A stretch of 64,000 bases of DNA from Candidatus Latescibacterota bacterium (GTDB taxonomy: Bacteria; Latescibacterota; UBA2968; GCA-2709665): assembly GCA_965203805.1 (NCBI GenBank), contig OZ241917.1:1-64000 (forward strand), written 5' to 3'. Positions 58,368 through 63,073 of the stretch are shown in pieces. How positions within the stretch are numbered: position 1 is the stretch's first letter; the number at the start of each line of letters is the position of its first letter. The notes below the pieces were generated by a model, which saw only the letters and a program-made list of their open reading frames with translations, ran no database searches and had not been told where the DNA came from. Position numbers and translations under genes: made by a program.

Positions 58368-59252
58368 ATGGCGGAACTGATCTACGATGGCGGCGCCGAT
58401 ACGTATCGGTTCGAGACGGAAGCGATGTCCGGCGAGATCCGCGCGTCGGGCGACTATCACGGCGTGTGGACGCTTACGGACAAAATTACGGGCAGACAGG
58501 TGATTCATCCGAAATATTCGGCGTTGAACCTGTTCCGGCTGTTCGCGGTTCACCAGGGCCTGGATCAGCCGCGCCTGATGGAACGCGCCATTGAAGCCCG
58601 TGACAGGGCTGTTGAGGTACATTGGCCCGTTACCGAAACACACCAGGGCGCGCTGACCGCACGGTACGAGGTGATCGAGCCCAACGGGATCGATCTGACG
58701 GTGACGGTGACTTGCGAAGGGACGTATGCGGGATATGAGCTCTTCCTTTCCAACTATTTCCACAAGACACTGCGGCCGCACGTCTATCTCCACGGAAGCC
58801 GGTACGGCCGGGCGGGCACGGCACCCGAGCTTGTCGTTCCCATGGTCAACGACGTCTTTCGCGGGACCGTCGTCGTGTTTCCGCGGGACCCGCACGCCGC
58901 CCGCCGTTGCGTGGACGGGCGGTGGAACCGCAGCGAGGGCAACTCACCCACCGTGCAGATGTGTCCGGTGCGGTACTACGGGTATCCGTTCTCCTTCCTG
59001 ACGGACACCGCGAACCGGCTGGGCGTTGTGCTGATGTCGAAGGAAGCGGACTGTTATGCCATCAGTACGCGTTACCACGTGGACAACGAAGCCGATCGCA
59101 TGACGGATTACAGCGCGTTCGACTTTTCGCTGTTCGGCGACGACCTAGTGCCCGGCAGCCGACGCACGGTCCGGATGCGGCTGGTATTGACAGAGCTCGA
59201 TGAAGACATGTCCCAGCCGCTGGCGCACTATCGGGCGTTTGCGGGGGTTTGA
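58368..59252 (+). CDS. Hypothetical protein (beta-rich)
   Basis: Long ORF with typical codon usage and an SD (GGAG). No family recognised. Confidence 0.7.
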   Translation: MAELIYDGGADTYRFETEAMSGEIRASGDYHGVWTLTDKITGRQVIHPKYSALNLFRLFAVHQGLDQPRLMERAIEARDRAVEVHWPVTETHQGALTARYEVIEPNGIDLTVTVTCEGTYAGYELFLSNYFHKTLRPHVYLHGSRYGRAGTAPELVVPMVNDVFRGTVVVFPRDPHAARRCVDGRWNRSEGNSPTVQMCPVRYYGYPFSFLTDTANRLGVVLMSKEADCYAISTRYHVDNEADRMTDYSAFDFSLFGDDLVPGSRRTVRMRLVLTELDEDMSQPLAHYRAFAGV

Positions 59253-59352
59253 CGGCGCCCGGCTGCAAAGGCATTCAGGGCACGGTTCGCCGTTGGGTCC
59301 GGCAGTACAGGCCCCAATGCGCGGGATTCAGGGTACCGAATCGATTTCGGGG

Positions 59353-59381
59353 TTGAATCGCGGCTGGCTTGTTCCTATTTT
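59353..59381 (+). promoter_or_regulatory. sigma70-type promoter of the NHL-TlpA-barrel operon
   Basis: TTGAAT-N17-TATTTT. Confidence 0.5.
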
Positions 59382-59539
59382 TACAGGATGGACGGTGTCC
59401 GGGGCGCCGCGGCATGCACTGCGCGATCCGGGTCCGCCGGTCGCGCGGAGCCCATCCGGGCGATTCAAGTGCTCGCCTGGGATTTCCACGGAGGAAAGAA
59501 CCCGTTGGCATTCGACATGGGGCTTTCGGACGAATCCGC

Positions 59540-60736
59540 ATGATGAGACGACTGAAACGGGTGTGGGTTCGGCTCGCGATGGTGGTCGGCGCTTCCGCGG
59601 CCGTGGCCGCTTGCGGAAAAACGCCTCCCACCGTCGACGACGACTTATACGAAGCGTATCCGGGGTTGCCCTACGGGATCATGATCACCCTCGCCGGCAC
59701 CGGGGACCCGGGCAGAAGTGCCGCGGGATCGGGTCCGCTTGACACGAACCTGTATTTTCCCCAGGATATGGCCGTGGGCCCCGGCGGCCGGACGTACATT
59801 CTGGACTGGAACAACAATCGGGTTGTCGTGATCGACAACGGAATCGTCCGTACCCTCATTGGCAACGGCGAACCGGGCAATGCCCGTGCGGGGCCCGCGC
59901 TGGAGACGGGGGTCGATCACCCGACCCATATTTCTTTCGATCTCCAGGGACGGCTGATTCTGTCGGCCTGGCAGAATTCCACGATCCTGAGGTATGACGC
60001 GACCTCCGGTCGCGTCGAACCGATTGCCGGGCGTGGCGACCGCGGTTTCGGGGGTGACGGCGGCCCCGCTCTCGAGGCCTCGCTGAACCTGCCGAGTTCC
60101 ACGGTATTCGACCCGGCCGGTCGCATGTATATCTCGGATCAGGGCAACCTTCGCATCCGAATGGTGGACCTTGACGGCGTGATCTCCACGATTGCGGGCA
60201 CCGGACGGGAGGGGTTTTCCGGGGACGGCGGTCCGGCCCACCTGGCCGACCTCTATGCGCCCACAGGCGACGCCGCGCACCCGGGGGGCCGGATTGCGAT
60301 GGATGGCAGGGGCAACCTTTACATCGCCGATACGTTCAACAACCGCATCCGAATGGTGGACGCCACGGGCAGGATCAGTACGGTGGCCGGCGGCGGAAGC
60401 ATCGGCCCAACCGCCGGTACGTATTCCGGAGACGGCGGCCCGGCAACTCAGGCCAGCCTTTCCCGCCCCAGCGACGTGGCCGTCGACACGGAGGGGAATC
60501 TGTATATTGCCGATACCGGCAACCACTGTATCCGAAAGGTGGATACGGAAGGGGTCATTAACACGCTTGCCGGCAGGTGCGGCGAGCCGGGATTCAAGGG
60601 CGACAGCGACCATCCCCGATGGGGCAAGCTCCGGAGTCCGTTCGGAGTGGCGCTCGACCGGGAGGAGAATCTGTACATCGCCGATACGTTCAACCACCGC
60701 ATCCGCGTGGTGTACAAGCACGTCGCCGAAAGATGA
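59540..60736 (+). CDS. NHL-repeat (beta-propeller) lipoprotein
   Basis: Lipobox VAA|C and repeated GDGGPA...L..P..VA.D..GNLYIADT.NHRIR units. Confidence 0.88.
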   Translation: MMRRLKRVWVRLAMVVGASAAVAACGKTPPTVDDDLYEAYPGLPYGIMITLAGTGDPGRSAAGSGPLDTNLYFPQDMAVGPGGRTYILDWNNNRVVVIDNGIVRTLIGNGEPGNARAGPALETGVDHPTHISFDLQGRLILSAWQNSTILRYDATSGRVEPIAGRGDRGFGGDGGPALEASLNLPSSTVFDPAGRMYISDQGNLRIRMVDLDGVISTIAGTGREGFSGDGGPAHLADLYAPTGDAAHPGGRIAMDGRGNLYIADTFNNRIRMVDATGRISTVAGGGSIGPTAGTYSGDGGPATQASLSRPSDVAVDTEGNLYIADTGNHCIRKVDTEGVINTLAGRCGEPGFKGDSDHPRWGKLRSPFGVALDREENLYIADTFNHRIRVVYKHVAER

Positions 60737-60801
60737 TCCGTCGGGCATTCGGCTGGAGAAGAGGAATCGGGGACCGGATACCGTTCTCTGAGGTTTCGAT
60801 T

Positions 60802-61302
60802 ATGGGTGGAATGCAGCTGCTCCGGATAACCGGTTTCGTACTGTCCGCGGGTCTGTGCATTTTCTTTGGTGATACCGCCGCCGCGGGCGATGGACCCGAT
60901 CCACTGCCCCGGGTGCAGGTCGTCACGCTCGAGGGAGATACGCTGAGTCTGGCCGACGTCTGCAAGGACAGGACATCCTTTGTCTATCTGTGGGCAACCT
61001 GGTGCAAGACGTGCAAAAGGGAGTTGAAGCACGTCTACAAGCTGAGGAAGAAATACGGAGACAGGGTGCAGGTCTTCGGCATCGCGTGGAAGAACAGCGC
61101 GGAGGAAATACAGACCTACTTCTCAGACAAGAAGGATTCGCTGCACAGCTATATCGATTCGGATGGCCGGGTGTTCGAAGCCTTCGAGACCCGCTTGACG
61201 CCCACGGTTGTCATCGTAAACGCCCGGGGAGAGGTCGTTTTCTCGGGGTACGGTTCGTTTCGGAAATACAGGAAAATACTTGAAAAGGCATTGAAGGGGT
61301 AG
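60802..61302 (+). CDS. TlpA/ResA-like exported thiol:disulfide oxidoreductase
   Basis: Signal peptide, WATWCKTCKRE active site and a cis-Pro TPT motif. Confidence 0.88.
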   Translation: MGGMQLLRITGFVLSAGLCIFFGDTAAAGDGPDPLPRVQVVTLEGDTLSLADVCKDRTSFVYLWATWCKTCKRELKHVYKLRKKYGDRVQVFGIAWKNSAEEIQTYFSDKKDSLHSYIDSDGRVFEAFETRLTPTVVIVNARGEVVFSGYGSFRKYRKILEKALKG

Positions 61303-61316
61303 TCGCCGGAGGATCC

Positions 61317-62297
61317 ATGACCATGAGCCGCACGATACGTGGAATCACGTTATTTCTGTTTGCCCAACTAGTTCTTGCAACCCAGCCCGTTCAGGCGCAG
61401 CCCGGCGTGAGCTGACGCCGTCCCGTGCTCCCGGGCGGGAGAATGCTGCAGGGCAGTCTGATCACCAAAGACCTGCTGGTTCTGAGCGTGAATTACGAGT
61501 ATGAGTACCTGGGAGATGCGATGTACGGTACCGGGCCGATACCCAACATCAACCAGGAAGTGACCAGCATGTCCACAGTGTCCGTATTCGCCAGTTACGG
61601 GGTCAAGGACTGGTTCGGCGCCGCCGTGGTTCTACCGTTTCGTTCCATAACCAACGATAAAATCCTCCTTCCCGGTCAGTACGACAACCAGTATCAGGGC
61701 GGCGAATACATCCGGCATGCCGCGGGCCTCGGCGACGTCGTTCTGATGTTGAACTTTGCTCCACCACTGCCGGAATCGTTGCCAGGCCTGCTCTTTTCTG
61801 CAGGTGTCAAGCTCGCGAACGGGTCGACCCACGCGGTCGACGAATACGGCGAGCGCTTCGCCGACCTGCTGCAGGTGGGGTCAGGAAGCATGGATCCCAT
61901 TTTCTCGGTCAGTCTGTCGCGCGCATTCGACAACCTGTTTTTCAACGGTATGCTGTTCACCCGCATTATTTCCCGCGAGAATGTATACGGCTACAAATAC
62001 GGGAACGAGTTTCAGGGCATCTTTTCGATGGAGTATATGCACGGGGAAAAGCTCATTGCGGGTGTCAGCATGAACCACGTCTACACGTCGCGCGATTATT
62101 TCCAATATGGAAAGATCGCCCGAAAACGCGGCGGCACCTGGCTGTATCTTGCACCGAAGCTGGGCATACGGGCAACGGAGAATCTGAGCCTCGAGGCCCG
62201 GCTGCCGCTGCCGGTCTATCAGAACGTGAACGAAAGCCAGTTGACGTCCGACTACCAGCTCCACGTAGGCGCCACGTATCACTTTTTCGCACGCTAG
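61317..62297 (+). CDS. Outer-membrane beta-barrel (MetA-pathway/'transporter'-like), predicted selenoprotein with in-frame UGA at codon 33
   Basis: SD GGAGG, then MTMSRTIRGITLFLFAQLVLATQPVQA|QPGVS-TGA-RRPVLPGG, in frame with the tracked ORF 61425-62297. Body has GLGDV, GVKL..G, LQVGSGS.D and YKYGN motifs and a terminal beta-strand with aromatic residues. Confidence 0.75.
61416..61454 (+). promoter_or_regulatory. Candidate bacterial SECIS element
   Basis: Stem CTCCC(61428-32)/GGGAG(61437-41) with a G-starting loop GGGC, 17 nt after the UGA. A plausible lower stem extends to about 61454. Confidence 0.55.
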
Positions 62298-62338
62298 GGG
62301 CCGCCTCGCGTCGTTTCGGGTAGCGTCCGGAGGCTTCC

Positions 62339-63073
62339 GTGGCACCCAGAGAAACCGAAAAAATGTGGGTCGCTCTGGCGCCGTTCTACGACGTGATGTA
62401 TCAGTGGAAGGATTACCGGGCCGAGTCGGAGCAAGTACATCAGATGATCCAGGCAAGGCGCGTGTCATCCGGCCGTTCTCTGCTGGACGTCGCGTGCGGG
62501 ACCGGGGAACACGTCCGGTTCTTGCGGGAGCACTACGACGTAACCGGACTGGATCTGAACCGTGAGATGTTGAAGGTGGCGCGCAGCAAGAATCCCGGCA
62601 TCCCTCTGCGTTGTCGCGACATGACCTCCTTCGACCTGAAACGCCGCTTCGACGCCGTCGTCTGCCTGTTCAGTTCGATCGCTTACGTCAGGACCTACCG
62701 GAATCTTGGACGGTCGATCGCGTGTTTCGAAAAACACCTGAAACCGGGCGGCGTACTTGTCATCGAGCCCTTTTTCACGACCGAGACGTTTCTGCCGGGG
62801 TCGATACACGGCGGCACCATGGAAGGAAAGGGTGTCAGAATCTCCAGGCACAGCGTGAGCAGGCGCCGCGGAAACCTGGCCGTTCTCGATTTCCATTTTC
62901 TCCTATCCACAAAAAAGGGCGTACGATACTTCCACGATACCCACGAACTGGCGCTCTTCGACCGGTCGCGGTTCCTTGAAATCCTTTCGAACGCCGGGCT
63001 CCGCACCTGGTATTGCGAGGATGGATTGACGCCGGGTCGAGGGCTGTACGTGTCGTTGAAAGCGCTCCCGTAA
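62339..63073 (+). CDS. Class I SAM-dependent methyltransferase
   Basis: LLDVACGTG, GLDLN, FDAVVCLFSSI and HLKPGGVLVIEP. Confidence 0.9.
   Translation: MAPRETEKMWVALAPFYDVMYQWKDYRAESEQVHQMIQARRVSSGRSLLDVACGTGEHVRFLREHYDVTGLDLNREMLKVARSKNPGIPLRCRDMTSFDLKRRFDAVVCLFSSIAYVRTYRNLGRSIACFEKHLKPGGVLVIEPFFTTETFLPGSIHGGTMEGKGVRISRHSVSRRRGNLAVLDFHFLLSTKKGVRYFHDTHELALFDRSRFLEILSNAGLRTWYCEDGLTPGRGLYVSLKALP

Follow-up and report, generated by a model that had tools for sequence, protein, structure and literature searches.

The FapF amyloid secretion channel and the COG4313 channel are 12-stranded outer-membrane barrels plugged by an N-terminal segment, and the FapF-type channel carries a long N-terminal periplasmic domain and belongs to a fap operon. 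As to outer-membrane barrels with selenocysteine (Sec), the tables of PMC9312934 (2022) and PMC13188914 (2026) list the MtrB/PioB type and the TonB-dependent receptor type alone. The bacterial Sec insertion sequence (bSECIS) model in the legend of Fig. 2 of PMC13188914 has a loop of 3-9 nt, a stem of 4-16 bp, G at loop position 1 or 2, a spacing of 16-37 nt and a minimum free energy (MFE) of -7.5 kcal/mol or lower. Here, we describe a barrel gene in the first 64,000 nt of contig OZ241917.1 of Candidatus Latescibacterota bacterium (assembly GCA_965203805.1; this whole stretch is called the window). The explanation that best fits our sequence comparisons, to which we give a probability of about 0.88, is that 61317-62297 forms one cistron for an exported outer-membrane barrel and that its UGA at 61413-15 is read as Sec, with recoding very probably achieved by SelB at a SECIS of canonical type.

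Direct translation of this frame gave 326 residues with one recoded codon: a signal peptide, MTMSRTIRGITLFLFAQLVLATQPVQA, then QPGVS, then the TGA, after which the frame stays open to a TAG stop. An original prediction, made from the sequence of the window, had read the Shine-Dalgarno-like GGAGG, two alternative ATG starts, a signal peptide ending in VQA, QPGVS, the single in-frame TGA, the open frame beyond it and a hairpin, CTCCC-GGGC-GGGAG, whose loop starts 17 nt past the TGA; we found each of these in place (Table 1). It had also remarked that the open reading frame (ORF) caller starts the barrel gene without a signal peptide, and indeed the ORF list starts it at GTG 61425 (290 amino acids). 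The barrel protein has no Cys in translation. Hence, the recoded residue is its sole Sec or Cys.

We found TGA at the same column in all of the 124 homologous loci with a readable N-terminus (78 distinct 360-nt sequences), a pool whose source sets partly overlap and in which some genomes were reached by two search routes; conservation of the protein on both flanks accompanies it, as the original prediction had proposed to check. Within the window's own phylum, 32 of the 168 genomes searched had a match, and the 34 places with a close relative have one TGA each, at the same column in 34/34. Two paralogs, ~52% identical, occur in all 15 genomes of the genus and both keep the TGA; the second copy in the window's genome (locus L051; G000:C1:670400-671341, minus strand) has its TGA at 671272, a 6-bp version of the hairpin and a beta-propeller lipoprotein gene next downstream. 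The TGA is also present in two genomes of another genus and in one 27-30% identical relative from another family. A scan of one genome per species yielded 51 loci, 45 of them in the close family, with TGA in 45/45; going by record titles, these come from Latescibacterota, KSB1, Calditrichaceae, Fidelibacterota and Neomarinimicrobiota/Marinimicrobia, along with some bins labelled Gemmatimonadota. Metagenomes yielded 21 close-family loci, two without the N-terminus, with TGA in the remaining 19/19. Similarly, the phylum of genome G174 (401 genomes) yielded 26 matches at E ≤ 1e-20, among them a clade just 34-42% identical to the query, with one TGA each in 26/26.

The residues around the TGA, AQ(G/P)G(V/I)S before it and RRPxLPGG after it, are nearly invariant, and their codons vary synonymously. 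The Ser directly before the TGA has an AGY codon in most lineages and TCC or TCA in L164-L170, and this switch from AGY to TCN indicates that selection acts on the amino acid. The homologous signal peptides are all open, basic then hydrophobic, and end in A-x-A before Q or similar, while their sequences drift freely. Hence, both flanks are conserved as protein and translation passes the TGA.

The hairpin, 5-6 bp long with its loop starting 17 nt past the TGA, consists of a CTYCC/GGRAG stem and an NGGN tetraloop, which are the codons for Leu-Pro-Gly-Gly-(Ser/Arg). Among 68 distinct regions, the Leu and second-Gly codons pair as CTC/GGG (41), CTT/GGA (20), CTT/GGG (4, a U-G pair), CTA/GGT (1) and CTG/GGC (1), and in the remaining one (L027) the stem is shifted by one base. 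In the 67 sequences that are in register, pairing holds in 93.3% of cells vs 27-70% in slid registers, and columns 27 and 36 form CG in 41, UA in 20, UG in 4, AU in 1 and GC in 1, with 0/67 unpaired. All four Watson-Crick combinations therefore occur at the variable pair, and the bases that vary there are synonymous, in third codon positions of Leu and Gly. The observed covariation score was reached by 0/500 shuffles, a smaller set also covaries, and RNAalifold predicts the same stem. Set against the bSECIS model, the 4-nt loop, the 17-nt spacing and the G rule hold in 68/68 and a stem of at least 5 bp in 66/68; the energy mark is reached by the hairpin alone in 50/68 (-8.3 kcal/mol for the window hairpin) and by the 42 nt after the TGA in 61/68. 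The bases flanking the hairpin, G61427 and A61442, are unpaired in the window copy and paired in the paralog and in other phyla. Covariation had been suggested as a test of this hairpin, and it came out clearly in its favour, as did loop, spacing and G position.

The selD gene of the same genome provides a comparison, since its TGA is followed by 10 nt and a 7-bp stem with a GGTC loop that starts 17 nt past the TGA; a GGUC loop is common to SelD and three barrel lineages. The barrel gene resembles canonical bSECIS selenoproteins such as this SelD in its in-frame UGA, its G-rich tetraloop 17 nt on and its CC/GG closing pairs, and the presence of selA, selB, selC and selD suggests that it depends on them. 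It differs from them in that Sec is not part of a thioredoxin-like or enzyme active-site fold but stands at the N-terminal tip of an exported membrane barrel, that no close Cys-form homolog was found, and that the SECIS is made from codons of a conserved LPGG(S/R). A genome scan for TGA plus a similar hairpin in long open frames returned 63 candidates, 20 of which were tested by Pfam; 18 of the 20 had no Pfam family, and the M20 peptidase and sulfatase domains found start well after the TGA. Hence, the SECIS consensus was not widened beyond SelD and the two barrels.

The machinery for Sec that the original prediction had called for (selA, selB, selD and tRNA-Sec) is complete in this genome, with all four above curated cut-offs. 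The genes for tRNA-Sec (73.4 bits vs a cut-off of 47), SelB and SelA (559 bits) are clustered near 1.838-1.841 Mb (G000:C1:1837983-1841498), and SelD, itself a selenoprotein with one in-frame TGA at 2775495, is encoded at 2.775 Mb (2775468-2776391). SelB was found in 18/18 genomes with a TGA barrel in the window's phylum, a co-occurrence that carries little weight because 130/168 genomes have SelB anyway, and in 8/10 carrier genomes from other phyla.

The window stretch recurs in runs of seven studies labelled sponge, coral or marine metagenome. A check of the raw base at 61413 had been proposed; on contigs of independent runs, the TGA is covered by one 4-kb DNA contig and by two RNA-library contigs (which are no proof of transcription, and whose uncovered gene parts are uninformative), with no other base listed. 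Hence, the TGA is kept and a base-call error is excluded. At 61403-61451, contigs of runs X19 and X4 match the motif and hairpin stretch alone and then have a different signal peptide, a pattern that would be expected from paralog-B-type genes in the same samples.

AlphaFold modelled the mature protein as a confident barrel (predicted local distance difference test, pLDDT, 88.4; predicted template-modelling score, pTM, 0.85) preceded by ~25 residues, with Sec within this flexible N-terminal tail. The barrel of the original prediction was thus upheld and its terminal aromatic strand corrected, as the C-terminus is ...ATYHFFAR, with aromatics at -4 and -3 and Arg as the last residue. The best Foldseek match is FapF (5o65; E 4.4e-13, template-modelling score, TM, 0.68, 296 columns). 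Identity to FapF is just 13-14%, however; the ~25 residues before the barrel leave no room for a long N-terminal domain, and no fap-like genes were seen beside the Sec barrel, whose neighbours are a redoxin, propellers and a methyltransferase. The COG4313/PF13557 (Phenol_MetA_deg) channel of Pseudomonas putida F1 (4rl8) also matches (E 1.3e-11, TM 0.69/0.76), and what sets the window protein apart from COG4313 channels is its Sec, its conserved RRPxLPGG tail and the redoxin and lipoprotein genes around it. Pfam returned 0 families for the window barrel at E ≤ 0.01, the PF13557 model being unmatched; 8/44 database homologs carry a precomputed PF13557, and in the ESM Atlas the barrel adjoins Fidelibacterota clusters, with PF13557 the nearest named cluster.

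Since the original prediction had stated that related barrels often carry N-terminal Cys motifs, the mature N-termini of relatives are of interest. In the wide family (21-28% identity), the conserved mature N-terminus is QGCC, QSCSC or similar, and MAFFT places the Sec column on the first Cys of the CC/CxC relatives with no gap up to the first strand. An Acidobacteria-type subfamily has SCGSANC at its N-terminus (CxxxxC). Hence, CC, CxC and CxxxxC motifs are found at the same place in distant relatives, as had been stated; Cys at the Sec column occurs in these remote relatives alone, and close relatives without TGA have Ser. In a remote homolog from a Myxococcota bin (L114:1144-2130), the signal peptide is directly followed by C-P-G-TGA-TNPTLPG (CxxU), and a separate 7-bp hairpin lies 16 nt downstream; this looks like an independent Sec form in the superfamily. 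Members across the superfamily thus repeatedly carry Cys or Sec motifs within 2-7 residues of their predicted mature N-terminus.

The recoding mechanism is of an ordinary kind; what appears to be new is the protein family, together with its three-gene envelope context. The review PMC13188914 contains none of the terms PF13557, COG4313 and phenol, and a full-text search of the literature found no relevant paper linking selenocysteine with COG4313, Phenol_MetA_deg, the MetA pathway or PF13557. No family of NCBIfam release 20.0, which we assumed to include NF041027, NF049945, NF041374 (GOS_B) and NF045500 (GOS_C), was matched at E ≤ 0.01 by the window protein, by two orthologs or by one relative of the CC type. 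The MtrB/PioB-type GSU2204 family (NF041027) and the FCYXU-motif TonB-dependent receptor (NF049945), as described in PMC13188914, are likewise exported outer-membrane barrels with predicted Sec, but they are different, larger families, and the window Sec is at the mature N-terminus. GOS_A, a hypothetical protein of the GOS study with 2 Sec sequences and 155 Cys homologs, is listed in PMC9312934 without domain, motif or accession and does not appear in the text of PMC13188914. The proposal of an undescribed selenoprotein family therefore stands, in that no matching catalogue entry or NCBIfam model was found; GOS_A was compared by description alone, and the Sec barrel, new relative to the catalogued families, may be identical with it. 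The example that had been offered of a selenoprotein porin, ExtI, finds no support in PMC5877670, which names ExtKL as the selenoprotein and ExtI as a porin.

We consider this a real, conserved selenoprotein family with an unusual Sec location that is systematically mis-annotated: 42/44 database homologs are at most 289 amino acids long, annotated from an internal start and lacking signal peptide and Sec. Cut at the TGA in this way, they enter databases as hypothetical proteins of cytoplasmic appearance or as 'transporters', and the selenoproteomes of these phyla are undercounted. Searches for Sec/Cys pairs would miss the family because close Cys forms are absent. The family would place a lone selenol at the tip of an exported barrel, tied to a periplasmic reductase and a lipoprotein, in what record titles indicate to be marine and sediment phyla of the FCB group, and its compact natural SECIS, made from LPGG(S/R) codons with textbook covariation, is a good test case for SelB recognition.

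Table 1. Features of the Sec barrel gene and its neighbours (window positions)
Feature	Position	Strand	Basis or remark
NHL-repeat beta-propeller, probable lipoprotein (MMRRLKRVWVRLAMVVGASAAVAAC, then GK), first gene of the local unit	59540..60736	+	Pfam NHL/TEN_NHL on ORF 59369-60736
TlpA/ResA-like redoxin with N-terminal signal/anchor and WCKTC	60802..61302	+	Pfam Redoxin 7.9e-14, AhpC-TSA 3.9e-12
Shine-Dalgarno-like GGAGG	61308..61312	+	direct reading; 4 nt before ATG 61317, 10 nt before ATG 61323
Signal peptide coding region, predicted cleavage between VQA and Q	61317..61397	+	translation; cleavage site inferred by eye
Mature N-terminus QPGVS, part of the conserved Q(G/P)G(V/I)S motif	61398..61412	+	homolog comparison
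TGA, very probably read as Sec; precursor residue 33, predicted mature residue 6	61413..61415	+	conservation, Sec machinery, independent runs
Rest of mature protein: RRPVLPGG tail, short helix, beta-barrel; TAG 62295-97	61416..62297	+	AlphaFold, Foldseek, homologs
SECIS-like hairpin: stem 61428-32 (CTCCC) / 61437-41 (GGGAG), tetraloop GGGC 61433-36	61427..61442	+	covariation
Class I S-adenosylmethionine-dependent methyltransferase (Methyltransf_25, Methyltransf_11)	62339-63073	+	directly downstream of barrel

Gene context was compared over 18 loci, the window and 17 picked to span lineages. A redoxin is encoded directly upstream of the barrel on the same strand in 13/18 loci, with CxxC invariant in 13/13; the N-termini of these 13 redoxins are mostly signal- or anchor-like, and three longest-ORF calls begin upstream of that stretch. 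The window redoxin gene, whose start is the likely one, ends 14 nt before the first ATG of the barrel. Pfam Redoxin and AhpC-TSA matches are above cut-offs, and NCBIfam ResA, StoA and TlpA matches are all below them. This neighbour therefore resembles the TlpA/ResA/DsbE reductases in its thioredoxin fold, signal/anchor and invariant WCxxC, and it differs from them in that its presumed client is a selenol on an outer-membrane barrel and that it is not an equivalog of named TlpA or ResA.

The link to thioredoxin-like proteins extends to relatives. In the CxxxxC subfamily, a redoxin is encoded downstream of the barrel in 3/7 loci (L112, L139 and L141), that of L112 having WCPHC and starting 10 nt after the barrel, and in P0050 (402 amino acids) and P0052 (407 amino acids) the barrel is fused C-terminally to a CxxC thioredoxin-like domain. 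Just upstream of two CxxxxC-type barrels of Acidobacteria type (L112:4372-4746 and L113:4434-4775) we also saw a small Cys-rich ORF (GCSM..C..CC), which may be a real metal-binding partner or a long-ORF artefact of GC-rich DNA.

Directly downstream of the barrel, 14/18 loci encode a protein of ~350 amino acids, a beta-propeller with weak SGL/lactonase matches and one invariant Cys, in a lipobox-like ...SC followed by SLYxD(D/E). The neighbours are split between the paralogs: the window copy keeps the redoxin, after an NHL propeller, and the second copy keeps the downstream propeller. The NHL propeller has an ortholog at the same place in 4/18 loci; its start at 59540 and its lipobox-like AAC come from translation, and it is a probable lipoprotein.

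Complex formation was modelled for the barrel and lipoprotein of L104, a pair of the ancestral type, using the barrel after the TGA and the lipoprotein without signal peptide in three runs with three controls. We found a median score of 0.63 vs 0.00 for the best control, with agreement between runs in at least 63% of contacts and a partner pLDDT of at least 85. The score mark is reached by 58/80 solved complexes and 2/110 mismatched pairs, counts that hold roughly, since our own alignments were used. The model supports, rather than demonstrates, binding of the propeller lipoprotein by the barrel. Predicted contacts join the invariant barrel loops IPNxNxE and NEKVLFRGQ..GG (piece residues 42-47, 81-88 and 94-97) to invariant propeller residues. 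The AlphaFold strand map puts these loops between strands 1-2 and 3-4, on the face opposite the short turns and the N-terminal tail. The long loops of outer-membrane proteins usually form the outer face, so the lipoprotein would contact the outer face of the barrel.

At ~61545-61575 and ~61665-61730 of the window, the loops read IPNINQEVT and NDKILLPGQYDNQYQGGEY vs IPNxNRERT and NEKVLFRGQ in the ancestral type; these changes would fit a partner switch to the upstream NHL propeller. Barrel and surface-lipoprotein pairs are known from Bacteroidota as SusCD and BtuB-BtuG. The pair described here is like them in that a beta-propeller lipoprotein is predicted on the long loops of a neighbouring barrel, in lineages of the same broad FCB group, and unlike them in that the Sec barrel is small, FapF-like and not TonB-dependent, and that surface exposure of its lipoprotein is itself a deduction.

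These observations suggest the following sequence of events. The hairpin at 61428-41 would recruit SelB and tRNA-Sec, and the ribosome would insert Sec at UGA 61413-15. Cleavage of the signal peptide would leave Sec at about position 6 of the flexible, ~25-residue tail in front of the barrel. The selenol at its tip would be a redox-active nucleophile that reacts with substrate reaching the channel, the periplasmic TlpA-like CxxC reductase encoded next door would return Sec to the selenol state, and the beta-propeller lipoprotein would dock on the long loops of the barrel, opposite to the tail exit. Of the possible roles, we tentatively favour this one, in which the flexible arm bears a redox-active selenol and the CxxC reductase next door recycles it, at a little less than an even chance.

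Several points weigh against the Sec barrel as we read it. The case for Sec is comparative throughout, and that for the redox role is gene linkage alone. SelB was not found in 2/10 genomes from other phyla, which are metagenome bins of 3.4 and 1.6 Mb. The hairpin alone is weaker than -7.5 kcal/mol in 18/68 regions and the 42-nt stretch in 7/68; the single-sequence MFE fold of the window copy favours a competing stem, and Rfam (E ≤ 10) over 61000-62500 gave no SECIS family and just a chance snoRNA match. At the Sec column, the close full-length homologs P0012 and P0025 have Ser, more distant homologs have Glu or Ala, the database proteins P0057 and P0191 show Trp, and Cys is found in no close homolog, an unusual situation for a redox Sec. 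The Sec tail (residues 1-20) was modelled at a pLDDT of ~52. Finally, the window copy lacks the downstream propeller used in the complex model, and its predicted interface loops differ.

The original prediction had held that non-Cys residues at this column would point to a nonsense mutation or pseudogene. Ser, Glu and Ala do count against Sec, as it said, but they are outweighed by the unbroken run of TGA, which goes well past anything chance would give. The comparative evidence establishes read-through of the TGA, a selected RNA structure at SECIS distance, a Sec-decoding organism, a FapF/COG4313-like fold and linkage to a redoxin and a lipoprotein. Reading the UGA as Sec is therefore strongly supported by conservation of the TGA and its flanks, the covarying hairpin, the Sec machinery and the independent runs.

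The best-placed alternative, second to the redox role and possible though unlikely, keeps the same selenoprotein and makes the tip selenol a ligand for soft metals or metalloids (e.g. Cu(I), Hg, As or Se species), which captures or hands over an ion at the channel while the TlpA-like reductase keeps the selenol reduced. TlpA proteins reduce the copper-site cysteines of ScoI and CoxB, which would agree with such a role, as would the vicinal CC at the same place in relatives, the Sec form without a second Cys to resolve a selenenylsulfide, and the small Cys-rich ORF upstream of the barrels in L112 and L113. It also accords with PMC13188914, which describes metal binding at many predicted Sec sites and a link to metal resistance for several selenoproteins associated with transporters. 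However, we recognised no gene for metal handling among those conserved neighbours that were tested, and a metal ligand accounts for the Ser, Glu or Ala seen at the column in some relatives no more readily than a redox role does; the Ser forms are explained by neither.

Near-cognate decoding or a local code change, by which the TGA would be read through as an amino acid other than Sec (Trp, Cys or Gly), is very unlikely. Its appeal lies in the Trp of P0057 and P0191 and in the comparative nature of the evidence for Sec, but the clade into which these Trp calls fall has TGA in its DNA: P0057 shares 68% identity with a genomic clade that reads TGA at the column between identical flanks. A code-4 gene call is therefore the likely origin of its Trp, and a gene caller applying code 4 probably accounts for both proteins. 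In these genomes, moreover, TGA is in use as an ordinary stop (it closes the SelD frame and the L026 barrel), the hairpin is positioned as is the SECIS of SelD, and the carrier genomes have SelB in the proportions given above.

It is highly improbable that the TGA is a true stop, ending a 32-codon signal-peptide-like leader ORF, with the barrel initiated separately (GTG 61425 or ATG 61443) and the hairpin acting in coupling or regulation. Such a layout is what ORF callers annotate, as in the 42 short database homologs without the N-terminal part, and in the window the TGA is indeed followed by GTG and ATG codons. Export of a barrel would fail without a signal peptide, however, and RRPxLPGG is invariant as protein; in AT-rich lineages the first start codon past the TGA lies 64-337 nt downstream, inside barrel strands, and the two full-length homologs with Ser (P0012 and P0025) join the N-terminal part and the barrel in one protein. 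Hence, a leader and a separate, signal-less barrel do not fit, and Sec machinery and SECIS-like geometry are present besides. A pseudogene, nonsense mutation or sequencing or assembly error, which a single in-frame stop within an otherwise intact gene might suggest, is refuted by conservation and has next to no chance, given the same TGA in every readable locus and in both paralogs of the genus, the intact rest of the frame and the contigs of independent runs that keep the TGA.

Returning to the Sec barrel with its redoxin and lipoprotein, the three genes could conceivably form a selenol relay across the outer membrane, in which the Sec-tipped arm of ~25 residues threads the barrel from the periplasm to the propeller lipoprotein on the outer loops; we regard this as improbable. 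If true, reducing equivalents or a bound chalcogen or metal species would be moved between the surface and the TlpA-like reductase, making the barrel a haem-free conduit for redox equivalents or cargo through the outer membrane.

A promoter and terminator scan of 59000-62600 gave sites no more frequent than in shuffles. The methyltransferase that follows the barrel in the window is not among the conserved neighbours in other lineages of the 18 loci. In 11/18 loci (L090:2379-4346, L104:2684-4450 and others), the unit has near it a gene for an FG-GAP/ASPIC protein that carries a C-terminal sorting domain for type IX secretion, and in L104, carbohydrate-binding module and esterase genes with the same type IX tail flank the unit.

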